A DNA stretch of 64,000 nt from Actinomycetota bacterium (GCA_034660035.1 JAYEIJ010000062.1:11522-75521); one strand, 5' to 3'. Positions 1 through 13,591 are shown, numbered from the stretch's first letter. The notes: generated by a model from the sequence alone, not told the origin. Program-made: numbers and translations.

Positions 1-138
1 TGTCAGAAGCCGCGGAAGTACGAAGTTGGCAGCGGCGAATGCGCCGACCTGGGCAACCGACACCGCGCCGACGGCGCCCTCAGAGACCCCGTAGCGTTCG
101 GCGATCACGGGGATGAGGAAAGGAGTCGCCGCATACAT
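1..138 (-). CDS. MFS-type transporter, N-terminal fragment (continues beyond window start)
   Basis: Reverse-complement of 1..138 reads MYAATPFLIPVIAERYGVSEGAVGAVSVAQVGAFAAANFVLPRLLT (hydrophobic TM1-like segment). ATG at 138..136. Too short for the ORF track. Divergent from the ADH gene. Confidence 0.3.
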   Translation of the reverse strand, partial: MYAATPFLIPVIAERYGVSEGAVGAVSVAQVGAFAAANFVLPRLLT

Positions 139-402
139 GAGAGCGACCGCAGCGGTAGCACCCACGAGGGCGACCGATGCATGCCGACCCGCGGCATAGG
201 CTATTCGAGTTGGGCCTTGCACACCCGGATTGTTGCAGGTGAGCGCGGGCACTCCTATTGCTCCGGTCGACCGGTGATCCGGTCTCGAATGGCCGAGGGG
301 CGATACGATGGCCCGAGCAGGCGAACAGAAAGGCCGACCGGGTATGAGCTTCGAGATCCAGGCCGGTCGCGTTGCGCTCACTGCACCGTGCGGGGCACAC
401 GG

Positions 403-1443
403 ATGAAAGCCGCCCTCTACTCGCGATTCCGGGGTCCGATCACCATCGAAGAAGTGCCGGATCCCGCACCGGAGTCCGACGGGGTGGTGGTGAGGGTCGA
501 AGCGACGGGACTGTGCAGGAGCGACTGGCACGGCTGGATGGGGCACGATCCGGACATCCTTCTGCCGCATGTTCCGGGTCATGAACTGACGGGAGCGATC
601 GTCGCCACTGGTTCAGACGTCAGTCGCTGGCGAGTCGGAGACCGCGTGACGGTTCCCTTCGTCGCCGGATGCGGCGAGTGCGAACCGTGCCGAGGCGGGG
701 ACCAGCAAGTCTGCGAGCGACAGTTCCAGCCGGGATTCACCGCATGGGGCTCCTTCGCCGAGTTGGTCGCGCTCCGATACGCAGATGGCAACCTGGTCGG
801 CGTTCCCGACGAGATCGATGCCGTCACTGCGGCGACCCTCGGCTGCCGCTTCGCAACGGCGTTCCGAGCAATCGTCGACCAGGGCAGGGTCGGCGCCGGT
901 GAGTGGGTTGCGGTGCACGGCTGTGGGGGCGTGGGACTTGCGGCAATCATGATCGCTAGGGCGTACGGCGCGGGTGTGGTGGCGATCGATCCGAACGTCG
1001 AAGCGAGAGAGCTCGCTCGGTCACTCGGCGCGACGACTCTGAGTAGCGATGTCGACGTAGACACGGTTCTCACGGCGCTGATGGATACGACCGGTGGCGG
1101 GCCCCATCTGTCCATCGATGCGATCGGCAACGCCGCCACGGTGGCGGTCTCGATCGATTCACTGCGGCCGCGAGGGCGCCACGTCCAGATCGGCCTTCTT
1201 CCCGAGAACAAGACCACCATCCCGATGGGGACCGTCATCGCAAAGGAGTTGGAGGTCCTCGGCAGCCACGGCATGCAAGCGCGTCGCTACCCCGCGATGA
1301 TGGAGATGATCCTCGACGGCCGTCTCGAGCCGGACCGGCTCGTAACGCGCACCATCCCTCTCTCGAATGTCACCGAGGCGCTTCCCGCAATGGGAACCGC
1401 CCAGAGACCGGGTGTGACCGTCATCGATCGCCTCGACGACTGA
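403..1443 (+). CDS. Zn-dependent alcohol dehydrogenase (MDR superfamily)
   Basis: ORF 181..1443, trimmed to ATG 403 (MKAALYSRF...). Has GHE motif, the Cys-rich structural Zn loop GCGECEPCRGG, and the Rossmann motif GCGGVGLAA. Confidence 0.85.
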   Translation: MKAALYSRFRGPITIEEVPDPAPESDGVVVRVEATGLCRSDWHGWMGHDPDILLPHVPGHELTGAIVATGSDVSRWRVGDRVTVPFVAGCGECEPCRGGDQQVCERQFQPGFTAWGSFAELVALRYADGNLVGVPDEIDAVTAATLGCRFATAFRAIVDQGRVGAGEWVAVHGCGGVGLAAIMIARAYGAGVVAIDPNVEARELARSLGATTLSSDVDVDTVLTALMDTTGGGPHLSIDAIGNAATVAVSIDSLRPRGRHVQIGLLPENKTTIPMGTVIAKELEVLGSHGMQARRYPAMMEMILDGRLEPDRLVTRTIPLSNVTEALPAMGTAQRPGVTVIDRLDD

Positions 1444-1459
1444 CTGGTAGGGTCCCTGC

Positions 1460-1789
1460 ATGACCAAAGAGCCATCCTTCACCGTACTGGAGAACCTCCT
1501 CGACGAAGTTGAGATCCCGGAGAACGGGACCCTCAGTCGTGTTGTGTTCAATGCCGACGGCCTGCGCGTTGTTCTCTTCGCGTTCGATACGGGCGAGCAG
1601 CTGACCGACCACGCCGCCACCGTGCCGGCCGTCGTCCAGGTGGTCAAGGGGCGTCTCGAGATGACGCTCGGTGATCAGAAGATGGAGATCGATCCCGGTT
1701 CCTGGGTCCACATGGATGCGCACCTCGTCCACGCTCTCGTCGCCCTCGAGCCCAGCGTCGTCATCCTCACTCTCCAACGGAACACCTGA
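1460..1789 (+). CDS. cupin domain protein
   Basis: 109 aa. Small beta-barrel-like sequence with His-containing motifs (HMDAHLVHAL). Confidence 0.5.
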   Translation: MTKEPSFTVLENLLDEVEIPENGTLSRVVFNADGLRVVLFAFDTGEQLTDHAATVPAVVQVVKGRLEMTLGDQKMEIDPGSWVHMDAHLVHALVALEPSVVILTLQRNT

Positions 1790-1795
1790 AACGAT

Positions 1796-2245
1796 TCAGC
1801 GAGAGCCTCGGGAGGCTTCGTACTGCTCGATGAACTCATCGAGTGGCATCGAGTTGATCGATTCGGCAATGACTTCCATCGCCAGATCGTCGGCCGTCTT
1901 GAAGCGGAGACATGACCGGCCCATGTCCAGTTTCTTCCCCGTTGCGAGGTACTTCGCCTTGAACGTCTCTTCGCCGTCCCGGACGAACGCCACGTTCATC
2001 AGGTAGAGGGCGATGTGTCGCTTCTGCGCCGCCAGGGCGGCGAACATGAGCGGCTTGCCGTTGTACGTGTCCGGGTACGTCTCGAGCGGCACCTCATATG
2101 TGATCATCCCCCACCGCATCACCTCCACATAGCCGGCGGGCAGGTTCTTGAGAATGAGATCCCGGACGGTTTCGACGTCGCTGCGCCGATCATCAGGAAT
2201 CTCGGCCAGGTATTGCTCAACCGTCGTCGCGTCGCTGGAGACCAT
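1796..2245 (-). CDS. DUF1801 (YdhG-like) domain protein
   Basis: 149 aa. N-terminal VEQYLAEIPDDRR and KRHIALYL motif typical of DUF1801. Confidence 0.5.
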   Translation of the reverse strand: MVSSDATTVEQYLAEIPDDRRSDVETVRDLILKNLPAGYVEVMRWGMITYEVPLETYPDTYNGKPLMFAALAAQKRHIALYLMNVAFVRDGEETFKAKYLATGKKLDMGRSCLRFKTADDLAMEVIAESINSMPLDEFIEQYEASRGSR

Positions 2246-2284
2246 GCGCCGGACCCTACCGGACCCATCCGTCCTTCGGAAGGT

Positions 2285-3376
2285 TCAATGCGGTGACTCG
2301 AAGACCTTCCCCGACCACATCGCGCGGATCGTTCTTGCAGCAACGGTTATCCACGCGCCGAAGAGGGCTACGAGCACAGCGATGTAGAACCAGTGGATGC
2401 TCTCGAAGTCGCTCACCTTCCACGCGACACCGGTGGCGACGGCGAGTGAACCGAGCGGGAACGTGTACGCCCACCACGACAGGGCGTAGGGCAGTTCCAG
2501 ATGGCGGACGTATGAGATGACGATGATGACCGCCATGATGAAGGACCAGGCGGCGAAGCCCCAGGCCGCGAGGATTCCGAGTGTGGAGATCGCTTCGATG
2601 GCGTGTGCATCGATGTCGATCGGTGTCCCCGCATCGAAGAGATGCATCATCTTGAACAAGGCCACGGTGATGATCGCCATCGGAGCGATCGCGATGAAGG
2701 ACGTCGCTGCGAACTTGTTGGCCGGGAGCGACTCGAGCACGTAGCGGTGGTAGACGAGTGAGCCGACGAAGAGGAACAGGAAGAATCCGATCCCGAAGCT
2801 GATGATCGAAAGACCGAACGTCAACTCGAAGCGGTCGGTGAAGACCATAGCGAGCTCGAAGCCGGCGACCGGGATGAGGAGCTTCGCTACCGGCGGGATG
2901 AACCATCCGAAGTTCGCATGGGACAGCTCGATGGCGTCGCTTCGGTAGATCTTCGGCAGCACGATGAACGCTGCCAGATAGATCCCGATCGAACCCACGA
3001 GCCACATCCAGAAGGCGATCTCGTGCGATGTGCCTTCTGAGAAGAACATGTCGGGGTACTTCAGAAGGTCGAGGGCGATGATGATGACAGCGATAGGCAT
3101 GGTGGGGAAGAAACTCGCCGCTATCGGATGGTGAAGATCATCCCGAACGACCTCGGGATACATGAAGAAGCGGAGCGTCCACGGGATCAAGATCGCGAAG
3201 AACATCAGCACCGAGATCACGACGAACGCTCCTGCGATGCCGCGTACCCACGAGCCGGTGAGGAACGAGATCGCGAGTGGCACGACCGCAGTCCCCATGA
3301 CGGCTGCGAACCATGCCGGGTTGAAGTGCTCGATGGTTTCGCTGAGGCTCGGGCGGTCGCCGCCTTTTCCCGTCAT
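2285..3376 (-). CDS. TDT-family transporter (TehA/Mae1/Ssu1-like, C4-dicarboxylate/tellurite/sulfite exporter family)
   Basis: ORF 2285..3427, trimmed to ATG at 3376 (MTGKGG...). About 10 predicted TM helices. Preceded by an AAGGA RBS. Confidence 0.55.
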   Translation of the reverse strand: MTGKGGDRPSLSETIEHFNPAWFAAVMGTAVVPLAISFLTGSWVRGIAGAFVVISVLMFFAILIPWTLRFFMYPEVVRDDLHHPIAASFFPTMPIAVIIIALDLLKYPDMFFSEGTSHEIAFWMWLVGSIGIYLAAFIVLPKIYRSDAIELSHANFGWFIPPVAKLLIPVAGFELAMVFTDRFELTFGLSIISFGIGFFLFLFVGSLVYHRYVLESLPANKFAATSFIAIAPMAIITVALFKMMHLFDAGTPIDIDAHAIEAISTLGILAAWGFAAWSFIMAVIIVISYVRHLELPYALSWWAYTFPLGSLAVATGVAWKVSDFESIHWFYIAVLVALFGAWITVAARTIRAMWSGKVFESPH

Positions 3377-3501
3377 TCGTGGTCCTTGATCGTCATCGAA
3401 TCCGTGGATCGTGAGGATACGGCGCAACGCGTGGGCCGAGTCCTCCGGGCACCGAAAGAGCCGGCCTCGGGAGGACAGCGCCGGCCCTTGGACGATTCCC
3501 C

Positions 3502-4128
3502 TCAGACGGTCGCTGGCTCCTCCTCCGGCGCATCCTCGATGTCTTCATAGCCCGTGACCATCGCCGTCACGTTGCTCAAGGGTGTCTCTCCCGTTGATGT
3601 CATGTAGACATGGACGATCAGGAAGATCACCAGGATGAACGCACCGAACGCATGAATGATCGCAACCCAGGCCAACCCACCGGGCCAGATCGACGACCAC
3701 GAGTTGTAGAACACGTACAGCAGACCGGTCGTCACCATCACGGGGACGATCAGTATCTTGAACGCAAGATACGTCGTCTTCTGGAGCGGGTTCAGCTTGC
3801 TCAGCTCGGTCTTCCGATACGGATGATCCTCACCTTTGAAGATCCCGAATGCGTAGTAACGCCCCTGGGTGACGAGCGAGCGTTCACCGGTCGGCTGGTA
3901 CTGGCGCCATGCACCGGTCGTGATATGCCAGAAGATGGCGAACACGATGAGGATGATGAACGACCAGGCGATGATGTTGTGGATTCGCACGGCCGTCTCG
4001 AACCCGAAGAGCGTGTAGGACCCGTGGATCTCGAAGCCCGTGATCATCAAGATGATGATGAACAGGGCCTGGAGCCAGTGCCAAAGTCGTTCGAACCCTG
4101 CGTAGATCTTGACCCGGTGTGCCGACAT
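3502..4128 (-). CDS. b-type cytochrome (Ni/Fe-hydrogenase b-type cytochrome / PF01292 family) membrane subunit
   Basis: ORF 3502..4212, trimmed to ATG 4128 (MSAHRVKIYAGFERLWHW...). Four TM helices with conserved His. GGAGGAG RBS. The ATG overlaps the TGA of the upstream octaheme cytochrome (ATGA coupling). Confidence 0.7.
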   Translation of the reverse strand: MSAHRVKIYAGFERLWHWLQALFIIILMITGFEIHGSYTLFGFETAVRIHNIIAWSFIILIVFAIFWHITTGAWRQYQPTGERSLVTQGRYYAFGIFKGEDHPYRKTELSKLNPLQKTTYLAFKILIVPVMVTTGLLYVFYNSWSSIWPGGLAWVAIIHAFGAFILVIFLIVHVYMTSTGETPLSNVTAMVTGYEDIEDAPEEEPATV

Positions 4129-5780
4129 CAGGAGCTCCTCCGCTTCGATCCCACAACTCTCATGACACCGTGGACGATGACCACCACCAGCGTGATGGCG
4201 ACCAGGCCCCACATCAACCAGTCGAGCGAGCCGCCATCACGTCCAGGGAGATAGAACCCGCCGAGAGAGGCAAGCACGCCGGCCCTACTGTGGCACGACT
4301 GGCATTCGACGGCATCACCACTCGGTGCAACCATGTGCGTCGCGGGCTCGTAGAAGACGGTCTCCATCCAGCCGACTTCACCGCTGTATGGAACGGCGGC
4401 ACCGGCGCTGTAAGGAGTACCGGCGACTTCCATCCCCGCAGCGATGGCGGTGTTCCAGTCGAACGACTTCCAGTACGCGGCGTCGTCTTTGCCGAAGAGA
4501 TGCGGCAAGGCGACCGTGTTGTTCCCGCCATCGATCGGCTGGATCCCCCTGAACGCCTTCACCGGATAGATCCGGGAATCCTCGTCATCATATGAACCCG
4601 CGTAGGCGTTGAGTTCCATCACTCCGTCTTCGTTGAGCACGACGGGGTCGCCTGCGATGGTGACATCCACGAGCCCGTTGAACCAGACATAGGCGGGAAC
4701 GAAGTCCCGGTCCCACTCGAAGTTGCCTTTGATCGTTGTGTATTCGACGTTCCCGTTCTCATCCTTCGTGGTGATCTTCGCACCGTCGGGGGCGAATTCA
4801 CCGGCCGTGGACCAATCCCACCAGGTCTTCGTGTACGTCTCCCCCCTGGCGAGTTTCGGGATGTGGCACGTCTGGCATGCAACCTTGTCGGTGTGCTCGT
4901 TGAGCTTGTCGCTGTCCATCGGCTGTGTGCCGTGGCACGACTGGCATGTTGCCTGATTCCCGTCGTCGAGCGGGAGATCGACACCGGATTCATCGGACGG
5001 ACTCATGTAGACCGATGACCCGTTGAGCTGGTGGTTGCGGCCCTCATGACAGTCGGAGCAGACCATGGCGGCACCGTCGGCCGACATGTGCACGTCGACG
5101 TCTTTCGATGCAGTCAACAGGTCGGGGTTGAGATCACCGTGCTTGACTCCGGCTCCGCCGCCACCGAAGAAGTGGCACGAGCCGCACGTCGCGTTGCTGG
5201 TCTTACCGACATTCTGAGCAATTGCCGACAGATCCGGCGGGTTCCACGTCTTGCCGCCGAAGTCCATCGGTTCGTAAGCGGGGTGGCCGGCTGCAGTCGG
5301 GAACTTCTTGTAGGTTCCGGTGGTGTCGTGGCACGACACGCAGTCCACGTTCTCCTCGATCGTGAAATCGAACGTGTGGTCCTTCCAGCCGTAGCCGGTG
5401 TGACAGCTCGTGCACCGCGGTTCGTTCGACTGAACGCCGATGCAGAAGTTGTTGATCTGGGTGGTCTTGCCGACGCCTTCGCCGAAGTGGTTGTCCCACG
5501 TCCAGTGCGTCGTCGCCTGGATCTGCTTAGCCGCTTCGGTATGGCACGACAGACACGCGGCAGTGAGGTCCGGTCCGGTGGCGAATGGCTGCTGGAGGAT
5601 CTCGAACTTGGAGTGGTCGGCGGTCGCATCGGAGCGTTCCACGGAGACCGGAACGGGCTCCTCCTCCTGTGCCACCGTCTCGGTCTGCCCGGTCGCTCCG
5701 GCTACGACGACGAAAAGTGCCGCGGCAACCAGCGCGAGCAGGATGAGGACCCGCTGCGTGAACCGACCTCGCGATGCCAT
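4128..5780 (-). CDS. octaheme c-type cytochrome (OTR/ONR/HAO-like multiheme family), N-terminal signal/anchor and C-terminal TM helix
   Basis: 550 aa. Eight CXXCH motifs: CLSCH, CTSCH, CVSCH, CGSCH, CSDCH, CQSCH, CQTCH, CQSCH. N-terminal hydrophobic signal peptide (RVLILLALVAAALFVVVAG). C-terminal hydrophobic helix (LMWGLVAITLVVVIVHGV). Confidence 0.8.
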   Translation of the reverse strand: MASRGRFTQRVLILLALVAAALFVVVAGATGQTETVAQEEEPVPVSVERSDATADHSKFEILQQPFATGPDLTAACLSCHTEAAKQIQATTHWTWDNHFGEGVGKTTQINNFCIGVQSNEPRCTSCHTGYGWKDHTFDFTIEENVDCVSCHDTTGTYKKFPTAAGHPAYEPMDFGGKTWNPPDLSAIAQNVGKTSNATCGSCHFFGGGGAGVKHGDLNPDLLTASKDVDVHMSADGAAMVCSDCHEGRNHQLNGSSVYMSPSDESGVDLPLDDGNQATCQSCHGTQPMDSDKLNEHTDKVACQTCHIPKLARGETYTKTWWDWSTAGEFAPDGAKITTKDENGNVEYTTIKGNFEWDRDFVPAYVWFNGLVDVTIAGDPVVLNEDGVMELNAYAGSYDDEDSRIYPVKAFRGIQPIDGGNNTVALPHLFGKDDAAYWKSFDWNTAIAAGMEVAGTPYSAGAAVPYSGEVGWMETVFYEPATHMVAPSGDAVECQSCHSRAGVLASLGGFYLPGRDGGSLDWLMWGLVAITLVVVIVHGVMRVVGSKRRSS

Positions 5781-5977
5781 CGTCGAACCTCCTCAAGCCA
5801 ATGTCATTCGCTCAAGCACATTCAACCGAACACCGGTCGTGCTGACCTCCAGTTCGTAGGGTCGAAAGTCCCCATCTGGAGACGCGCCCCACCGATACAA
5901 CGCCACATCAGAGGCGAACGGCCATAGACGTGTCCCGTTTTGGGCCGTTCTCTCGATGTGGGAGTTCTGTCCCTCCG

Positions 5978-7060
5978 CTAGAAGCCGAGCGCTTTTCGGG
6001 TGTTGCTTCCGACCAGTCCGTCGACGCGAAGGCCGTGGTCGTCCTGGAAGGCGAGGATCGCCAGTTCGGTCTTGGGACCGAAGATGCCGTCGATGGGTCC
6101 CGGTGCATACCCGGCAGCAACGAGGAGGTCCTGGGTCCGGAGGACGTCGGCACCGCGACTGCCCTTTCTGAGGATCCCGGACGAGTTCGTCGTTGGGACC
6201 GGCGTGTCATCGCCTGCGGGGGCGATGGTGCTCGCGACGGTGCCATTCTCGTGGCGGGTCACGAGTGCGGCTCGTGTGGCACGTCCCGCAAGTCCGTCGG
6301 CCGTCAAGCCCGCGTCGGTCTGGAACGCTGTCACTGCTTCGATCGTCCGCGTTCCGCTGATCCCGTCGATCGGTCCCGGTTGGTAGCCGAGTCCGGTCAG
6401 GACATCCTGAAGACGTCGGACGTCGGCGCCCCTGGTACCTTCTTCGAGCAAGCGGTAACCGTCGAACAGCGGATCGGCGGGACCCGCACCGAGCCAGTTC
6501 GCGCCGGCATTGGCGAGCGATCGGAACGGGTTGACGATCACTCCCGAGGGGTCGCGTAGTTCGAAGTGGAGATGAGGGTTGGTGAGTTCAGCGGTACCGG
6601 AGTCGCCAACCCAACCGAGGAGCTGTCCGGCCTTCACGGGTGTTCCGGGAACGATGCCGTCTGCGATCCCCCACGCGAGCCCGTCGTCCGTCCCGGGGGT
6701 GTCATTGTTGAGATGGATGTACCACGATTCCCATCCGTCATTGTGTCGGAGCGCGATCGTGCAGCATCGCTCCGGATTCATGTGTTCCGCGCTCGTCCAG
6801 TTGACGAGGCGCACCGTTCCATCGGCCGCTGCGACCACAGGTGTCAGCTTCGGCGACATGAGATCTTGGGCGTGGTGGATGCCATGAGAGCGCGCGGCCC
6901 AGAACCAATCCCAGAAATGGTGTTCACCGTCGACGGGAGCGGTCAGCGGGTAGTCGACCAACTCCCCCAGTTCGTGTGCCGATGCCGAAGCGGCAGGCAC
7001 AACGGTGAATGCGAGCAGGACCGTGACGGTGGCGGCGATAGACCGCAGGGTGTTCTTCAT
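5978..7060 (-). CDS. M23 family metallopeptidase with two peptidoglycan-binding (PG_binding_1) domains
   Basis: ORF 5978..7228, trimmed to ATG 7060 (MKNTLRSIAATVTVLLAF, signal peptide). HxxxD and HLHFE M23 motifs. Two C-terminal LxxGxxGxDVxxLQ repeats. Confidence 0.8.
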   Translation of the reverse strand: MKNTLRSIAATVTVLLAFTVVPAASASAHELGELVDYPLTAPVDGEHHFWDWFWAARSHGIHHAQDLMSPKLTPVVAAADGTVRLVNWTSAEHMNPERCCTIALRHNDGWESWYIHLNNDTPGTDDGLAWGIADGIVPGTPVKAGQLLGWVGDSGTAELTNPHLHFELRDPSGVIVNPFRSLANAGANWLGAGPADPLFDGYRLLEEGTRGADVRRLQDVLTGLGYQPGPIDGISGTRTIEAVTAFQTDAGLTADGLAGRATRAALVTRHENGTVASTIAPAGDDTPVPTTNSSGILRKGSRGADVLRTQDLLVAAGYAPGPIDGIFGPKTELAILAFQDDHGLRVDGLVGSNTRKALGF

Positions 7061-7146
7061 TGTGTACTCCAGTGACGTGTCTTCCTCCCTTTGTATCGGT
7101 CGCGCCGAGCACGACCTGAGGGATTCCACCGGGGAACGAGTGTCGT

Positions 7147-7638
7147 TCAGATGAGAGGTAGATCGATCTCGACTGTGACGATCGGGTCGACCCGCAGCAT
7201 GAGCAGGCGCGGAGGTTCGAGGCCCCACCAGCGAACGTCGAACTCGCCGGTGCCGCTGAGGCGGGGACCGGGGAGGAGGTTGAGTTCCCCCTCCACCAGA
7301 ACCTCCGCATCGAGAAAGCGGACCGTGCCGGTGATCTTGGCTGTGTTCCCGCCGGTGTCTTCGGTTGTTTCGATCTCGGCAACGATTCTCGGGTGTGTCG
7401 TCGTATCGACACGGCGATTCATCTCCCGGTCGATGAGGCGATTGCCTGATGAGAGGTCGTCGAGGGGAACGTCGAGCCGTCCATGCAGGGGATGGGTCGG
7501 CACGAACCCGTCATCGTCGAACGCCGCCTCGAACCACCCTGAGGCCTTGCCGTTCGTACGGATGGGATGAACCGAAGACGTGGCGACGAATGTGATGGAT
7601 CCGGCCGGAGCGTCGATCGACCAACGTCGCAGTTTCAT
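7147..7638 (-). CDS. YceI-like domain protein
   Basis: ORF 7147..7788, trimmed to ATG 7638 (MKLRRWSIDAPAGSITF...). YceI-like beta-barrel pattern. Confidence 0.45.
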   Translation of the reverse strand: MKLRRWSIDAPAGSITFVATSSVHPIRTNGKASGWFEAAFDDDGFVPTHPLHGRLDVPLDDLSSGNRLIDREMNRRVDTTTHPRIVAEIETTEDTGGNTAKITGTVRFLDAEVLVEGELNLLPGPRLSGTGEFDVRWWGLEPPRLLMLRVDPIVTVEIDLPLI

Positions 7639-7757
7639 GCTCTCGCGCCTCCCGTGCTCGTGCTGTGTCCACAGCGTCGACGACGCACGCGAATCTAGCG
7701 CCCTGCTTGCCGGATACACTCTGCGAATGCGATCCGCGACCAGAAAGGGAATCGCGC

Positions 7758-8408
7758 ATGGACACCGATACCCCGACCCAGCCATCACTCCCCCGACTCA
7801 ACGAACCGGCTCCGGCATTCAGAGCCCCAACGACCCACGGCGTCAAGGAACTGTCGGACTACGCCGGCAAGTGGTTGGTTCTGTTCTCCCATCCGGCCGA
7901 CTTCACCCCGGTCTGCACGACCGAGTTCATGGCATTCGCGAACGCCTACGAGGACTTCCAGGCGATGAACACGGATCTCCTCGGCCTGTCCATCGACTCG
8001 CACTTCTCCCACATCGCGTGGACACGCACGATCGAAGAGAAGTTCGGCGTGAACATCCCGTTCCCGATCATCGCGGACCTCTCCATGGAAGTCGCGAACG
8101 CATACGGCATGATCCAACCCGGAGAGAGCGACACATCGGCGGTTCGATGCACCTTCATCATCGATGACAAGGGCGTTGTCCGGGCGATGGTCTACTACCC
8201 CCTCGCAAACGGGCGCTCGATCGCCGAATTCGTGCGTCTCGTCAAGGCACTGCAGACATCCGACGAGCACGGAGTTGCCACGCCCGAAGCATGGCAGCCC
8301 GGCGATCGGGTCATCGTCCCACCGCCGGCAACAGCAGCCGGAGCGAAAGCGCGACTCGAAGAGGGATATGACTGCATCGACTGGTGGTTCTGCACCAGGG
8401 AACTCTGA
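7758..8408 (+). CDS. peroxiredoxin (1-Cys Prx6-like, AhpC/TSA family)
   Basis: ORF 7665..8408, trimmed to ATG 7758 (MDTDTPTQPSLPRLNEPAPAF...). Has the FTPVCTTE peroxidatic Cys motif. AAAGGGA RBS. Confidence 0.85.
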   Translation: MDTDTPTQPSLPRLNEPAPAFRAPTTHGVKELSDYAGKWLVLFSHPADFTPVCTTEFMAFANAYEDFQAMNTDLLGLSIDSHFSHIAWTRTIEEKFGVNIPFPIIADLSMEVANAYGMIQPGESDTSAVRCTFIIDDKGVVRAMVYYPLANGRSIAEFVRLVKALQTSDEHGVATPEAWQPGDRVIVPPPATAAGAKARLEEGYDCIDWWFCTREL

Positions 8409-8480
8409 GCCATACGCGCTCTTCGGATTTGACTGGCGTGTGGGAAGAGTTGGTGGTGGGTCGGGTGATGGTTGGGAGAG

Positions 8481-8660
8481 CCCGTAGTAGGTAGTGGCGA
8501 AGTAGGTATGACGTAGTACGACTCGGAGGTCTTGTGTCGGTTGGTTGCGTGGTGTATCTGTGTACTGATGCACGACTATCGACAGCGAGGATGTCTCCCC
8601 CCCCCTGATCGGGGGTCGTACTACGTCATACGTCGTACGTACTACTCCCCGGTTCTCGCC
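8481..8660 (+). repeat. structured intergenic repeat element, copy A (MITE/REP-like)
   Basis: Terminal inverted repeats GTATGACGTAGTACGAC (8506-8522) and GTCGTACTACGTCATAC (8617-8633). An 18-nt block ACGTAGTACGACTCGGAG is identical to copy B (27574-27591, reverse). Near-palindrome GTCGTACGTACTAC. Poly-C tract. Confidence 0.6.
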
Positions 8661-8706
8661 GACCCCGCTCATTCCCGAAGGCTTCGCTATACGCGACATG
8701 CCCCAA

Positions 8707-8728
8707 GGGACCCGCTTCGACGGGTCCC
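8707..8728 (-). terminator. stem-loop terminator downstream of trkH
   Basis: GGGACCCG-CTTCGA-CGGGTCCC, an 8-bp GC-rich stem just 3' of the trkH stop (8737). Confidence 0.5.
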
Positions 8729-8736
8729 CGTCGCGT

Positions 8737-10215
8737 TTACCGCCTCCAGAACGATGCCGTGAAGAGCAGGATCACCGGGTAGATCTCGAGGCGTCCGAGG
8801 ATCATCAACATCCCGAGAACCCACTTCCCCGGCGCAGCGACCTCGGCGTAGGTCGATGCGGGACCAACCGTTCCGAGTGCGGGGCCGACGTTGCTGATAG
8901 CAGACGCTGCTGCCGACAGACCGGTCACGAGATCCATGTTGGCACCCCAGGCGCTCTCGAAATAGAGCAGCAGCACCGTCCCTATGCCGAACGCGAGCAT
9001 GTACACGACGACGTAGCTGTGGACGGCGGAGACGATCTCCGCCGGAACGGGAGCGCGGCCGAACCGGGTGATCGACACCGATCGGGGCCGTGTGAGACGC
9101 CGTACCTCGGCGGCGGCCGACTTGAGAACGATCGCGACGCGGTACGTCTTGAGGGCGCCGGTCGTGGACCCCCCCATGCCACCGATGAACATCATCATGA
9201 GGATGACGCCTCCCATGGCCGCCGGCCAGACCCCGTAGTTGGTAACCGTGTATCCGGTTCCCGTGATCGTGGCGATCGCCGTGAAGATCGACTCACGAAC
9301 AGGGACGCCAACGTTGTCGAGAGCCACGCCGCCCATCAACAGAGCAACGCCGGTCAGCAGACTCATGAGGTAGTAGCGGAACTCCGGCTTCCTGAGGTAC
9401 TCGCTCGGATCGCGAAGCGCTCTGATGTGCAGAGTGAACGAGGCCCCCGCCACGATCATCAGTGCGATGATGACCCACTGGGAGTATGCAGAGAACGCTC
9501 CGAGGGATCCAGATTCGGTGCTGAATCCCCCGGTAGAGACAGAAGTCAGAGCATGGGCTATCCCCTCGAACACCGTCATGTCACCGAAGGCCAGAAGTAC
9601 TGCTGCGGCAACGGTGAGTGCGACGTACAGGCCCCACAGGCGCAGTGCCGTTCCCCGGAATCGCGGTGTGAGCCGGTCTGGCTCCGGACCGGCTGTTTCC
9701 GCTCGTACGAGGTGGAGGCCACCTGCGCCCACAAGGGGCAGTACGGCGATCGACAGAACGATGATCCCCATGCCGCCCAGCCACTGCGTCGTTGCCCGCC
9801 ACATGAGAAGACCCTTTGCGACGCCCGACAGATCCACGATCACGGTTGCCCCGGTCGTGGTGAATCCGGCGGTGCTCTCGAACAGAGCGTCGGTGGCGCT
9901 GAAAGAACCCGTCAACAGGTAGGGAACGGAACCGAAAGCGATCACCGCGACCCATGCGATGGCGACACCCGCAAACGCATCTTTCGGACGGAGGCGCTCG
10001 GGGCGACCGACGACCACGATCGTCAGCCCGCCGATCCCGACCGCCAATACCAGAGTGAGACCGAGATGAAGAGCGGTCTCCCACTCCCGATAGATCGCTG
10101 CTACCACGATCGCCGGCGTCACCGCCAGTCCACCCGCGACGAGAACGATGCCGACGATATAGGCGATGCGGCGCGGTGTAGGTGTGGCCGCCCAGCCTCG
10201 GGTGCGGAGAGGCAC
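8737..10215 (-). CDS. trkH: Trk/Ktr potassium uptake system, membrane subunit TrkH
   Basis: 492 aa. Multi-pass membrane protein with repeated TGG/TGF selectivity-filter-like motifs (TAGFTTTG, STGGFST, TGTGYT, GGMGGSTTG). Confidence 0.85.
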   Translation of the reverse strand: MPLRTRGWAATPTPRRIAYIVGIVLVAGGLAVTPAIVVAAIYREWETALHLGLTLVLAVGIGGLTIVVVGRPERLRPKDAFAGVAIAWVAVIAFGSVPYLLTGSFSATDALFESTAGFTTTGATVIVDLSGVAKGLLMWRATTQWLGGMGIIVLSIAVLPLVGAGGLHLVRAETAGPEPDRLTPRFRGTALRLWGLYVALTVAAAVLLAFGDMTVFEGIAHALTSVSTGGFSTESGSLGAFSAYSQWVIIALMIVAGASFTLHIRALRDPSEYLRKPEFRYYLMSLLTGVALLMGGVALDNVGVPVRESIFTAIATITGTGYTVTNYGVWPAAMGGVILMMMFIGGMGGSTTGALKTYRVAIVLKSAAAEVRRLTRPRSVSITRFGRAPVPAEIVSAVHSYVVVYMLAFGIGTVLLLYFESAWGANMDLVTGLSAAASAISNVGPALGTVGPASTYAEVAAPGKWVLGMLMILGRLEIYPVILLFTASFWRR

Positions 10216-10218
10216 GGT

Positions 10219-11550
10219 CTACGCCCCGAAGAGGCGCTCTACGGCACCGATGATGTCCGGGGTAGAGAGCACAACGACCCGGTCACCCTTCCTGAAACGA
10301 GATGAACCTCGAGGCACGATCGCCTCGCCGGATCGGAGTATCGCTCCGATGACCGCTCCGTCGGGCAAACGCAGGTCACCGATCGAGATCCCGATTGCAG
10401 GTGCATGTTCCATGATCTCGATCTCCAGGGCTTCGATGCCACCCGTCATGAAGTCTGCCGCCGACACGATGGCGCCCCGGCGCACGAAGCGAAGAACGGC
10501 ATTCGCTGCAGCGACCTTCGCCGAGACCCCGGCGCTGATCCCAACGGCGGGCATGAAGTCGAAGAGCGCGACTCTGTTGAACCGCGAGACCGTTGTGGAT
10601 GCTCCGAGACGATCGGTGATCAGGCACGCGAGCATGTTGACAGCGTCGCTTCTGGTCAGGGCCAGCACACCGTCGCCCTGTCCTATCTCAAGGTTCTGGA
10701 AGACCATCGGGTCGGTAGGATCCGCCACGATGACGTCGATCTTCGGGTTGCGGGCCGCGATGGCGTGAGCCCGGTCGGGATTGTTGTGAATGACAAGCAC
10801 GCGGCGACCTTCACTCCGAATGGCGGCGGCGCTGAGTTCGGCGACTCGTCCCCCACCGATGATGATGACGCGATCGATTTCCTCCGAGGTCGCACCGATG
10901 AGTTCGCTCGCCCTGGTCACATCTTCGGCTTTGGCCACGAGGAGTATCTTGTCGAAAGCCTCGATGACCGTCGCGCCTCTTCCGACGAGCGCTCGGTCGT
11001 TCCTGATGATCGAGGCGATCACGCAATCCCATCCCTTGAGGGATTGTCGCATCTCCGCCAGGGACTGCCCGACGAGATCTGAGCTCGAACTGACGATCCC
11101 GCCGAGGATCACGATGGAACCGTCGCAGAACATGAAGTAGTCCGACAACCCTGGATGGGCAATGAGGCCGACGAGCTTCTCCGCAACCGAGGCTCGTGGG
11201 TCGATGACGGCTTCGACACCCGACTGAAGGACGATGTCCTGGAGTTCGCGGTGCTCGATCCGCGCAACGGTTCGCTCAAGACCGAGCGCACGCGCCGTCT
11301 GACAGGCGAGAACGTTCGTTCCATCGTCATCCGACACGGCGAACAGGATGTCGGCGCGTTCCACACCGGCTCGACGAAGAACGCTCGGACTCGCCCCATT
11401 GCCCTCGATGACCTGTGCATCCAGACGCTCCCGAAGATGGGCCGCCCGGTGAGCATCGGCCTCCACGATCGCGACGTCGTCACCCTCAGCAACGAGACGC
11501 TCAGCAAGGTGCGATCCGTCGGCTCCTCCTCCAACGATCACGATCCTCAT
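10219..11550 (-). CDS. trkA: Trk potassium uptake system NAD-binding subunit TrkA (two RCK domains)
   Basis: 443 aa. Two Rossmann motifs: VIVGGGADGSHLA and IIIGGGRVAE. Adjacent to trkH. Confidence 0.85.
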   Translation of the reverse strand: MRIVIVGGGADGSHLAERLVAEGDDVAIVEADAHRAAHLRERLDAQVIEGNGASPSVLRRAGVERADILFAVSDDDGTNVLACQTARALGLERTVARIEHRELQDIVLQSGVEAVIDPRASVAEKLVGLIAHPGLSDYFMFCDGSIVILGGIVSSSSDLVGQSLAEMRQSLKGWDCVIASIIRNDRALVGRGATVIEAFDKILLVAKAEDVTRASELIGATSEEIDRVIIIGGGRVAELSAAAIRSEGRRVLVIHNNPDRAHAIAARNPKIDVIVADPTDPMVFQNLEIGQGDGVLALTRSDAVNMLACLITDRLGASTTVSRFNRVALFDFMPAVGISAGVSAKVAAANAVLRFVRRGAIVSAADFMTGGIEALEIEIMEHAPAIGISIGDLRLPDGAVIGAILRSGEAIVPRGSSRFRKGDRVVVLSTPDIIGAVERLFGA

Positions 11551-11665
11551 GCCTGCTCCCGGATGTCTCTCGATACGAGGCTAGTCCGCCGACCCGTGCG
11601 AACCTCGCACATGCCGCTCGACAGATCATTGTCCGGCGTGACCTGCGCTCCCCTACTCTGTTCGT

Positions 11666-12286
11666 GTGACCGAAGACAACGTACCGAGGGAGATCGGGGT
11701 CGGCCCCTATCCGGAGCCGTGGCCCGACGATCCGAGGATGGATCACGAACTTCTGGCGGAGGGCGACCGTCGCAACGTCATCGATCGGTACCGCTACTGG
11801 TCGCAGGAAGCCATCATCGCCGACCTCGACCTGCGACGGCACCCGTTCCACGTGGCGATCGAGAACTGGCAGCACGATTTCAACATCGGATCCATCGTCC
11901 GCAATGCGAATGCCTTCCTCGCTGCCGGTGTCCACATCGTCGGGAAGCGTCGATGGAACCGTCGGGGCGCCATGGTCACGGACCGTTACCTCCGCGTGGA
12001 GCATCACTCCACGATCGCGCATCTCATCGATTGGGCTGCCGATGAGGGGCTGCCGATCATCGGAATCGACATCCTGCCCGGTGCAGTTCCGATCGAGACA
12101 ACCCATCTACCGAAGCGCTGCATCCTGCTGTTCGGACAGGAAGGTCCAGGCCTTTCCATCGAAGCACGGGACGCGTGCGACATGGTCTGCTCGATCGCCC
12201 AGTTCGGATCGACCCGGTCCATCAACGCAGGCGTGGCCTCAGGAATTGCCATGCACATCTGGATCCAGCAGCACGTGGAGTTCTGA
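11666..12286 (+). CDS. TrmH/SpoU-family RNA 2'-O-methyltransferase
   Basis: 206 aa, GTG start. NIGSIVRNANAF and LLFGQEGPGLS motifs of the SPOUT family. Confidence 0.7.
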   Translation: MTEDNVPREIGVGPYPEPWPDDPRMDHELLAEGDRRNVIDRYRYWSQEAIIADLDLRRHPFHVAIENWQHDFNIGSIVRNANAFLAAGVHIVGKRRWNRRGAMVTDRYLRVEHHSTIAHLIDWAADEGLPIIGIDILPGAVPIETTHLPKRCILLFGQEGPGLSIEARDACDMVCSIAQFGSTRSINAGVASGIAMHIWIQQHVEF

Positions 12287-12343
12287 CCGATGAGCTGTGG
12301 GCGAGAGGGGTGAGATCTCTTCCTGTGTGTTCTTGCTCATGGC

Positions 12344-13591
12344 TCAAGGCTCATAGCTCAGGGCTTCCGGCTCAAGGCTCCCTCCGGCCGACACTTCCAC
12401 GGCTCCATACCCATGGATCACGAACGCGGGGTTCCGCGTCGGAGGCTCCACGAGGTGTAATCCGGGCATCAGTGCCGCCATACGTTCTACCGCTACCGAG
12501 AGTTCGAGCCGCGCGAGCGGGGCTCCGATGCATGTGTGGATCCCGCCTCCGAACGTGATGTGCGAGGCATCCCCGCGACCGACGACGAACTCGTCCGGAT
12601 CGTTGAAATGCCGGGGGTCGCGGTTCGCCGAGCCGAAGAGCATCGCGACCTTCTCGCCGCGGATGAATTCGCGCCCTGCATAGGAGACTCCGTCGGCGAG
12701 CACCCATCGTTCGAAGAGTTGCAGCGGCGGATCGAAGCGGATCATCTCCTCGACGGCCGTTCTCGGGGCCACTCGTTGCGAACGGATCGACTCCCACGCA
12801 CCCGGAGTCGAGAGCACCGAAACCATCCCGTTTCCGAGCGAGTTGACGGTGGCCTCATGGCCGGCGTTGAGGAGAAGCACGATCGTCGAGATGATCTCGC
12901 TGTCGCTCAGCCGGCCGTCCGACGTCTCGACCGTACAGAGACCCGAGATGAGATCGTCCGCAGGGTGCGCCCGCCGTTGGGCGATGAGGTCCCGACACCA
13001 CGAAGAGAAGTCCGCTGACGCCCGAACCGCGGCGGCAGCCTGGTCGTCGCTCGTGTCGAGTTCGTACATCTTCACGATGCGATGCGACCAATCGAGGTAC
13101 CGAGGCCAGTCCTCGAGTGGTGCTCCCAGCAGTTCGGCGATCACATGTATGGAGAAGGGCTGTGCGAAATCGGAGAGAAGATCGAAACGCGGGTTGTTCG
13201 ATGCTTTCTGTAGAAGCCGGTCGGCGTGACCGACGATCGCCGATCGGAGTCCCTCGATGCGCTTCGGTGTGAACTCCCGATACACCAGTTGCCGCAGGCG
13301 GCGATGCTCCGGCGGTTCGAGCATCAGGAGAGACCACTGCTCGATGTCGTTGTATGGACCCCACTCAGGCCTCAGCGGTGGAAGGCCGACTTCGGCTCTG
13401 GTCATAATCGGCTCCGGTACCCGCCCGAGGCGTCGGTCTCGCAGCACGCGGAAGACGTCCTCGTATCGGGTCAGGAACCAACGCCGTGTTCCGTCATCGC
13501 CTACCTGATCGAAGATCGGAGTGGCTTCGCGAGCGGCATTGAGGATGGGATACGGGTCCTGGAGGAAGTCGGGATCGGAGAAGTCGATCAT
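12344..13591 (-). CDS. cytochrome P450
   Basis: 415 aa. Heme-binding FGGGIHTCIGAPLARLE. ExxR motif (EEMIRFDPP). I-helix AGHEAT. Confidence 0.9.
   Translation of the reverse strand: MIDFSDPDFLQDPYPILNAAREATPIFDQVGDDGTRRWFLTRYEDVFRVLRDRRLGRVPEPIMTRAEVGLPPLRPEWGPYNDIEQWSLLMLEPPEHRRLRQLVYREFTPKRIEGLRSAIVGHADRLLQKASNNPRFDLLSDFAQPFSIHVIAELLGAPLEDWPRYLDWSHRIVKMYELDTSDDQAAAAVRASADFSSWCRDLIAQRRAHPADDLISGLCTVETSDGRLSDSEIISTIVLLLNAGHEATVNSLGNGMVSVLSTPGAWESIRSQRVAPRTAVEEMIRFDPPLQLFERWVLADGVSYAGREFIRGEKVAMLFGSANRDPRHFNDPDEFVVGRGDASHITFGGGIHTCIGAPLARLELSVAVERMAALMPGLHLVEPPTRNPAFVIHGYGAVEVSAGGSLEPEALSYEP

Follow-up and report, generated by a model that had tools for sequence, protein, structure and literature searches.

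The stretch of DNA analysed here, called the window, comprises 64,000 nucleotides (nt) of one strand from an Actinomycetota bacterium (GCA_034660035.1 JAYEIJ010000062.1:11522-75521), and at positions 2285-5780 it encodes an octaheme c-type cytochrome, a b-type cytochrome and a TDT-family transporter, one after the other on the minus strand. The question raised by this locus is whether the three genes form a dedicated and unusual oxyanion-respiration module, as a first-pass annotation made from the sequence had proposed, and which reaction such a module might serve. We found that the octaheme protein is a full-length member of the OTR (octaheme tetrathionate reductase) family and that, together with the cytochrome b, it forms a widespread two-gene unit. 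We consider it likely that this operon encodes a two-subunit membrane-bound enzyme passing electrons from quinol to an oxyanion, most likely tetrathionate, and that the transporter is not an obligatory part of it. The enzyme family and the b-type partner were recognised correctly by the first-pass annotation, but the rarity of the architecture was overstated and the transporter was probably wrongly included.

The 550-residue protein carries CXXCH motifs at residues 76, 123, 147, 199, 241, 279, 302 and 493, exactly the eight counted at first reading, and 16 of its 17 cysteines lie in these motifs, the remaining one being C113; neither CXXCK nor CX15CH variants of the heme motif occur in it. It matched the TIGR04315 (octaheme_Shew) profile from end to end (558.3 bits against a cutoff of 375, E = 1e-167, profile positions 1-440 of 440) as well as the Shewanella OTR sequence of PDB entry 1SP3 (E = 4e-107, ~50% identity over 440 aligned residues), both far beyond chance. 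The only significant PDB structure match of its AlphaFold2 model (mean predicted local distance difference test, pLDDT, 77.5) was again 1sp3, with a template modelling score of 0.84 normalised to the target and E = 1.5e-41. The eight cysteine pairs and the histidines of the CXXCH motifs were invariant among 60 homologues and aligned with those of 1SP3, and K105 and C113 were invariant in the same set. In Shewanella OTR the catalytic heme 2 has an unusual axial ligand, Lys56 (Mowat et al. 2004, as cited in PMC5317091); K105 is its counterpart in our alignment with 1SP3 and is accordingly the predicted ligand of the catalytic heme.

The profile search, the 1SP3 match and the conserved lysine narrow the OTR/ONR/HAO/MccA clade proposed initially to OTR. 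No model of MccA, HAO or ONR matched the 550-residue protein at E <= 0.01 in the profile library search, and identity with the MccA/SirA sulfite reductases was rejected on the grounds that the protein has CXXCH motifs only, a single extra cysteine and no MccA model match. An electron carrier of the NapC/NrfH or DmsE type, the case which the first-pass annotation had itself named as speaking against it, did not materialise: the NrfH and DmsE models gave local matches far below their cutoffs (27.4 bits against 134.2 and 23.6 against 192.2, respectively), and OTR membership extends over the full length. At the N-terminus, the hydrophobic segment annotated as a signal or anchor is present; an anchor is the less likely reading, since A-G-A followed by T points to a cleaved Sec signal peptide, with cleavage predicted by the AXA rule.

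The C-terminus ties this protein to the cytochrome b. The transmembrane (TM) helix expected there was predicted by AlphaFold2 at residues 518-549, and the 53 residues past the last CXXCH hold the motif GFYxPGRD...(D)..GW...L.GV..H-G-x-x-R, in which GFYxPGRD (residues 508-515) precedes the helix and KRRSS comes after it. Y510, P512, G513, W524, H537 and R541 are at least 90% conserved, H537 (window 4170-4172) lying inside the helix. The stop codon of OTR overlaps the start of the cytochrome b gene by 1 nt in TGATG, so that the translational coupling claimed earlier stands and the ATGA junction named for it does not; overlaps of -1, -4 or -8 nt, or gaps of <=5 nt, separate the two genes in nearly all relatives. 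A tail-anchored OTR plus cytochrome b subfamily was defined in this analysis by the tail motif and an adjacent PF01292 gene, after the type of BOGUAY_2386 from an orange Guaymas Beggiatoaceae, and the window locus has both features (tail residues 508-541 and the cytochrome b overlapping by TGATG).

The tail was present in 105 of 105 OTR-cytochrome b pairs, and a tail-bearing OTR was directly followed by a cytochrome b homologue in each of 33 genome loci, at distances of -8 to +5 nt except in the outliers L005 and L032. Conversely, all four informative loci with a tail-less OTR (L025, L027, L028 and L031) are without the cytochrome b; a fifth, L029, was left out of this count as its downstream sequence is too short to judge. 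When metagenomes were scanned reciprocally from the cytochrome b profile, OTR lay directly upstream in 50 of the 53 loci with room for it, and the H-x3-R pattern recurred in 65 of 70 tails, the misses that were inspected being longer C-termini. As tail and cytochrome b co-occur in both directions, the constant unit consists of two genes. The b-type partner is dedicated, as had been surmised, by its translational coupling, its FdnI/HyaC-type fold and its co-occurrence, and by analogy with FdnI and HyaC the two proteins would form a physical complex.

The cytochrome b matched PF01292 (91.5 bits against a gathering threshold of 30.1), and its AlphaFold2 model (pLDDT 86.5) shows the four TM helices annotated at first, with FdnI (1kqf_C), HyaC (4gd3_A) and CybB (5oc0) as the best structural matches. 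In the profile alignment, the invariant H17, H50, H159 and H173 correspond to the canonical heme ligands of HyaC, one each in TM1 and TM2 and two in TM4; H35 and H68 are likewise invariant and have no HyaC counterpart. Counting tail residue H537, seven membrane-domain histidines were invariant in 104 of 105 pairs drawn from loci L001-L127, which left co-variation of the tail histidine with H68 uninformative. As only four of the seven match canonical FdnI/HyaC ligands, the membrane domain may hold a third heme or a special quinone site, and H68 and H537, both near the cytoplasmic face as judged by helix depth, could ligate such a heme or line such a site. A PDB sequence search with the single cytochrome b sequence returned nothing beyond chance LH1-beta matches. 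These were weak (E ~0.04), fell on TM2 (residues 42-68, window 3925-4005) with its H50-x17-H68 spacing, and probably reflect a chance resemblance of two-histidine tetrapyrrole-binding helices.

The closest loci, searched in GTDB contigs with one genome per species, were six contigs from five Acidimicrobiia/Actinomycetota metagenome-assembled genomes (MAGs) with OTR identities of 74-90%, which place the genome in the Acidimicrobiia and agree with the actinobacterial host proposed from the sequence. The next relatives, at 44-53% identity, belong to many Gammaproteobacteria (Thiodiazotropha, Chromatiales, a sponge symbiont), an alphaproteobacterium, Anaerolineae and others, and at least 6,882 homologues are present in the protein database, where the best 120 measure 525-585 residues with few exceptions. 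In a neighbour-joining tree the Acidimicrobiia OTRs formed one clade, sister to a proteobacterial tail-bearing clade. The tail-anchored OTR and cytochrome b pair was found in Gammaproteobacteria, Alphaproteobacteria, Anaerolineae, Bacteroidota and others, and a Beggiatoaceae representative has already been assayed (PMC6449678), so the arrangement is not the unusual one that it was taken for; the locus is an actinobacterial example of a known, widespread and partly characterised kind of enzyme. The GC content at third codon positions (GC3) of the three open reading frames (ORFs) is 0.80-0.83, like that of the surrounding genes. A recent horizontal transfer of the OTR-cytochrome b pair was rejected, as its GC3 (0.80-0.82) is no lower than that of the backbone genes and codon composition gives no sign of such an event.

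The third gene follows on the same strand, as annotated, across a 122-nt spacer, and its product matched PF03595 (195 bits against 27.9), scored below the cutoff of TIGR00816 (186.9 against 237.25) and of the TehA equivalog (22 against 342), and found no match in a PDB sequence search. By these scores it belongs to an uncharacterised subfamily of the SLAC1 superfamily; an alternative TTG start at 3427 would give a 380-residue form. We consider it rather unlikely that OTR, cytochrome b and TDT constitute a dedicated three-gene module in which TDT moves a substrate or product (thiosulfate, sulfite or nitrite) in place of YeeE/YedE. Such a module would agree with the OTR-cytochrome b-TDT order, which was retained in all eight OTR-positive Acidimicrobiia loci despite rearranged flanks, and with the YeeE/YedE anion transporter found at this position in 45 of 58 other loci. 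However, a single ancestral insertion accounts for the shared order of the OTR-positive loci, which are closely related (74-91% identity), and TDT orthologues of 68-69% identity occupy the same backbone position without OTR or cytochrome b in L040, L041 and L044, the window, L040/L041 and L044 sharing the order TrkA-TrkH-YceI-like-M23 peptidase ... TDT-DUF1801-cupin-ADH. More distant TDT relatives also lack OTR, and in the TDT tree the OTR-linked copies form one clade with OTR-less copies as sister group and further OTR-less outgroups, therefore the transporter predates the pair at this site. The survey for the three-gene arrangement that had been suggested with the first-pass annotation found TDT in the Acidimicrobiia loci and in none of ~27 proteobacterial OTR-cytochrome b loci, where no conserved third gene was found downstream of the cytochrome b, the genes there being variable and often on the opposite strand.

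The segment between the M23/peptidoglycan-binding peptidase gene and TDT (window 5978-7228 to 2285) is a variable slot among the Acidimicrobiia relatives: L040 has only a 93-residue ORF there, L036 and L044 carry an iron-siderophore-type FecCD/Peripla_BP_2/ABC cluster, L005 and L026 an additional ~3.5 kb, and L002 a relocated DUF1801 gene. The spacer itself also speaks against a common transcript. Directly after the cytochrome b stop lies a GC-rich hairpin, a probable intrinsic terminator, whose stem is kept with compensatory and wobble changes in L001, L003, L004 and L036 and whose folding z-score ranges from -2.3 to -4.5 in relatives. The -10-like box GTATCCTCA further along is conserved in the OTR-positive relatives, GTATGCTTC precedes TDT in the OTR-less L040, and a separate TDT promoter at this box is probable. 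A terminator and promoter scan of 1700-6300 gave nothing above shuffle expectation; it missed the hairpin because the loop exceeds 8 nt. These findings (OTR-less orthologues at the same position, the hairpin and the -10-like box) are evidence of the kind that the first-pass annotation had stated would detach the transporter from its module, namely for unrelated transcription units, and TDT is probably an ancestral neighbour in its own transcription unit. A functional link between OTR and TDT keeps a low probability, considering the anion transporter at this position elsewhere and a SLAC1 gene in L123.

In that locus (L123:4322-8091, 63% GC, on a 293-kb contig), which comes from an unrelated lineage, the order is OTR-cytochrome b-DUF6858-SLAC1, with cytochrome b 55%, OTR 46% and TDT only 24% identical to the window proteins; the two families have here been brought together independently, which has been counted for the three-gene module. 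A further locus, L005:8001-11010 from an Actinomycetes MAG, looks decayed or misassembled: its OTR has a frameshift near residues 425-471, its cytochrome b an in-frame TGA at the position of G72, an in-frame deletion joins cytochrome b residue ~194 to TDT residue ~100, and a frameshift lies at the TDT 3' end. On account of the stop, frameshift and deletion, its cytochrome b-TDT joint was rejected as a Rosetta-stone fusion.

For the two-gene enzyme that we favour, the cytochrome c would be exported by Sec, loaded with eight c-hemes and tethered through its C-terminal helix to the outside of the cytoplasmic membrane, where the tail helix would dock on the four-helix cytochrome b as the FdnH/HyaA tails do on FdnI/HyaC. 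Menaquinol, the assumed quinone species, would be oxidised at the cytochrome b, and electrons would travel over the b-hemes and along the chain of eight c-hemes to the catalytic heme with its lysine ligand (K105). A small oxyanion would be reduced there, most likely tetrathionate to thiosulfate, with nitrite/hydroxylamine and possibly sulfite as alternative or additional substrates; reductase activity on tetrathionate, nitrite or hydroxylamine is ascribed from homologues. The pair appears to have entered, or to have been kept in, the variable Acidimicrobiia backbone slot directly upstream of the resident TDT/SLAC1 gene.

The preference for tetrathionate comes from gene context. In 45 of the 58 metagenome loci with room downstream of the cytochrome b, two Sulf_transp (YeeE/YedE) genes come next within ~50-300 nt, the second of them being a fusion with rhodanese, and the resulting OTR-cytochrome b-Sulf_transp-Sulf_transp/rhodanese order is the commonest context of anchored OTRs (L045, L046, L052-L127); a double rhodanese, SoxY, an MFS transporter or a porin follows in other loci. 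YeeE imports thiosulfate (PMC7449682, PMC11073785), YeeE-like SoxT proteins import sulfur compounds (PMC11582611), and the otr gene of Thiodiazotropha adjoins soxYZ (PMC11237559). Owing to this recurrent link to thiosulfate-handling genes, tetrathionate/thiosulfate is favoured as the physiological couple. The potential of this couple is ~ +198 mV and that of menaquinone, the quinone typical of Actinomycetota, ~ -74 mV, so in a menaquinone-using actinobacterium the enzyme should run as a reductase.

Several points weigh against the two-gene explanation or its assigned substrate. The Acidimicrobiia loci do not have the YeeE/rhodanese genes that back the thiosulfate reading elsewhere, menaquinone is an assumed quinone of this host, and in the window the hairpin after cytochrome b has a z-score of -0.3, no stabler than shuffled sequence, so that transcription might continue into TDT. 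In vitro, tetrathionate, nitrite and hydroxylamine are all substrates of Shewanella OTR; its physiological role has not been established since 2004, and an otr deletion gave no tetrathionate phenotype, a role in sulfite reduction having been suggested instead (PMC12949373). A nitrogen-oxide role is possible in some lineages. The OTR-cytochrome b pair of the Solemya symbiont and of a related gammaproteobacterium has C554-like, PF13447 and NapC/NirT cytochromes around it (L037:4036-7815; L038:6639-7925 and 10227-12369), which suggests a larger multiheme redox island in these sulfur oxidisers.

The same neighbours (L037-L039) lend weight to a different substrate, namely that the enzyme is primarily a nitrite/hydroxylamine reductase serving detoxification or ammonification and that the sulfur genes found elsewhere are incidental here. 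The catalytic heme of NrfA is Lys-ligated as in OTR, which also counts for this possibility, and both Shewanella OTR and the Beggiatoaceae homologue act on nitrite and hydroxylamine in vitro (PMC6449678; Atkinson 2007, as cited in PMC10949509 and PMC12949373). Yet thiosulfate-handling genes accompany 47 of the 58 related operons and nitrogen-cycle genes none of them, the scanned parts of the window hold no nitrate or nitrite genes close to the cluster, and the tetrathionate activity of BOGUAY_2386 exceeds its nitrite activity (PMC6449678), hence we regard a primarily nitrogenous role as unlikely, if still a serious alternative. It is improbable that the complex oxidises thiosulfate (or hydroxylamine or sulfite) and feeds the quinone pool, by analogy with the thiosulfate:quinone oxidoreductase DoxDA. 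Cytochromes b of the FdnI/HyaC type do normally reduce quinone, and sulfur oxidisers are numerous among the carriers (Thiodiazotropha, the Solemya symbiont, Chromatiales), with SoxY neighbours (PMC11237559), but thiosulfate oxidation at +198 mV would be strongly uphill with menaquinone, characterised OTRs have very low thiosulfate oxidase activity (PMC12949373), and YeeE with rhodanese fits the import of a thiosulfate product.

We give very little credence to a non-catalytic conduit or a terminal reductase for extracellular electron transfer to metals, like OcwA of Thermincola. A surface-exposed multiheme cytochrome in a presumably monoderm cell would suit such a role, and NrfA, OTR and MccA are structural relatives of OcwA (PMC10376724, citing Soares 2022); the full-length TIGR04315 match, the invariance of the catalytic lysine and C113, the lack of any other multiheme cytochrome in the window and the occurrence of the OTR-cytochrome b unit in many organisms without known metal respiration all oppose it. 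It is also doubtful that the locus encodes an uncharacterised respiratory module in which the tail supplies H537 as a heme ligand that pairs with H68 to give more than the two canonical b-hemes and the SLAC1/TDT protein is co-opted for thiosulfate uptake in place of YeeE/rhodanese; if true, it would be a tetrathionate-respiring, thiosulfate-salvaging system in a monoderm actinobacterium.

Table. Features of the OTR locus, positions counted from the first nucleotide of the window.
Feature	Position	Strand	Basis
Octaheme c-type cytochrome, OTR family, 550 aa	4128-5780	minus	CXXCH count, TIGR04315, 1SP3, AlphaFold2 fold
Predicted signal peptide, aa 1-29 (n-region R4/R6/R10; h-region 11-27; A-G-A before T)	5694-5780	minus	translation, predicted helix 4-27
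Codon for K105, counterpart of 1SP3 Lys56	5466-5468	minus	alignment with 1SP3
C-terminal TM tail, aa 518-549, motif W524...H537-G-x-x-R541	4134-4229	minus	predicted helix, conservation
TGATG junction, OTR stop/cytochrome b start, 1-nt overlap	4126-4130	minus	sequence; translational coupling
Four-TM b-type cytochrome, FdnI/HyaC/PhsC-like, 208 aa	3502-4128	minus	PF01292, AlphaFold2 fold
GC-rich hairpin + UCUUUC directly after cytochrome b stop, probable intrinsic terminator	3455-3489	minus	stem conservation
GTATCCTCA box with TANNNT -10-like hexamer, 33-41 nt upstream of TDT ATG	3412-3420	minus	conservation
TDT/SLAC1-family anion transporter, 364 aa from ATG	2285-3379	minus	PF03595
Conserved OTR upstream region	5781-5930	minus	alignment of seven Acidimicrobiia loci
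Shine-Dalgarno sequence GAGGAGG	5788-5794	minus	conserved in alignment
TTGAAT -35-like box	5819-5825	minus	conserved in alignment
GGGGACTTTCGACCCTAC box	5856-5873	minus	conserved, upstream of putative TTGAAT box

The 150 nt upstream of OTR, with the TTGAAT box, the GGGGACYTTSGNCCCTAC box and GAGGAGG, are conserved whatever gene lies further upstream, therefore the OTR-cytochrome b pair brings its own control region. Promoter and operator roles of these boxes are predicted from their conservation. The region 5781-5977, described as AT-richer in the first-pass annotation, does deviate in that direction, though only mildly (58.4% GC against 63% for the window). A small hairpin, TAGGGCC-loop-GGCCCT, was also seen at ~5900-5925 on the minus strand, its stem kept by compensatory changes in relatives, and together with the GGGGACTTTCGACCCTAC box it could provide operator sites for a regulator. 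An Rfam scan of 1-12000 returned two sub-threshold chance matches and none for the upstream boxes.

A Pfam scan of ~25 of the ~56 likely ORFs of the window yielded housekeeping and miscellaneous genes (Der GTPase, carboxyltransferase, glycosyltransferases, sulfatase, Na/Pi transporter) and no cytochrome c maturation genes, and neither another multiheme cytochrome nor a YeeE gene was found in the whole window by tblastn and a six-frame CXXCH scan. A YceI-like ORF (7147-7788, minus strand) and a 1-Cys peroxiredoxin gene (AhpC-TSA + 1-cysPrx_C; 7665-8408, plus strand) overlap at their 5' ends, and the long ORF calls starting at GTG or TTG probably overextend both.

The locus adds the Acidimicrobiia to the carriers of OTR, a protein whose role has been open since 2004 (PMC12949373), and the OTR literature searched contained no discussion of this class as a carrier. 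The window locus is mostly ordinary, and standard annotation pipelines would name its OTR and cytochrome b correctly. Of more interest are the family-wide features: the strict coupling of tail and cytochrome b, the surplus of invariant membrane histidines and the dominant YeeE-rhodanese context, none of which we found described in the literature searched. Most of the OTR relatives retrieved are membrane-anchored with a dedicated cytochrome b, and genes for thiosulfate uptake and rhodanese follow them in most lineages sampled, a context that suggests quinol-dependent tetrathionate reduction followed by thiosulfate import.

Compared with known systems, the window protein is nearest in sequence to OTR of Shewanella oneidensis (SO_4144, 1SP3), with which it shares the TIGR04315 profile, about half of 440 aligned residues, the eight CXXCH motifs in the same order, the lysine of heme 2 with a nearby cysteine, and the fold (score 0.84). 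The Shewanella protein is however soluble and periplasmic, without a C-terminal helix or a dedicated cytochrome b, and CymA has been proposed as its electron donor (PMC12949373). To this plan the window OTR adds a tail of ~53 residues with a histidine-bearing TM helix, a coupled cytochrome b gene and short insertions relative to 1SP3 near residues 168-178 and 254-272. The soluble form may be an atypical model for the family. A closer architectural parallel is BOGUAY_2386: TM helices are predicted at both the N- and the C-terminus of this OTR homologue, the next gene is annotated as 'thiosulfate reductase cytochrome b subunit', and the recombinant OTR protein was shown in vitro to reduce tetrathionate (up to 93 umol/min/mg) as well as nitrite (PMC6449678). 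By this published description the two loci share the sub-architecture of an anchored OTR with a cytochrome b, which was therefore already on record, and they differ in that BOGUAY_2386 is gammaproteobacterial (diderm), has 582 residues and is succeeded by phs/psr-like genes.

With MccA/SirA and HAO/ONR the window protein has in common that all are octaheme, extracytoplasmic and oxyanion-converting, and the hemes of MccA superimpose on those of OTR (PMC12949373); it differs from MccA in having neither CX15CH nor a spare cysteine pair for the Cu site. For the cytochrome b, the best-scoring NCBIfam model was PhsC (NF011582), a name borne by many database entries of its homologues, with 116.3 bits against a cutoff of 204 over profile positions 53-245 of 248. 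Equivalog identity with PhsC was rejected, the match being below the cutoff and short of the full five-helix length. As it begins at profile position 53, the window protein is without the first PhsC helix, and no PhsAB molybdoenzyme is encoded nearby. The OTR tail helix may take the topological place of this missing helix, because it runs from outside to inside and ends where the cytochrome b begins.

The best fold matches of the cytochrome b are the membrane partners in FdnH/FdnI (1KQF) and HyaA/HyaC (4GD3), with four shared histidine ligands. The electron-transfer subunits of FdnGHI and hydrogenase-1 each terminate in one TM helix beside a four-helix di-heme cytochrome b, and by this analogy the window unit most likely works like these membrane modules. 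The partner here is a multiheme cytochrome c instead of an Fe-S subunit, sequence identity is only 14-22%, and the window subfamily has the extra invariant H35 and H68 in the cytochrome b and the conserved H537 in its partner's tail. Electron flow is probably reversed with respect to FdnI and HyaC, running from quinol to the outside.

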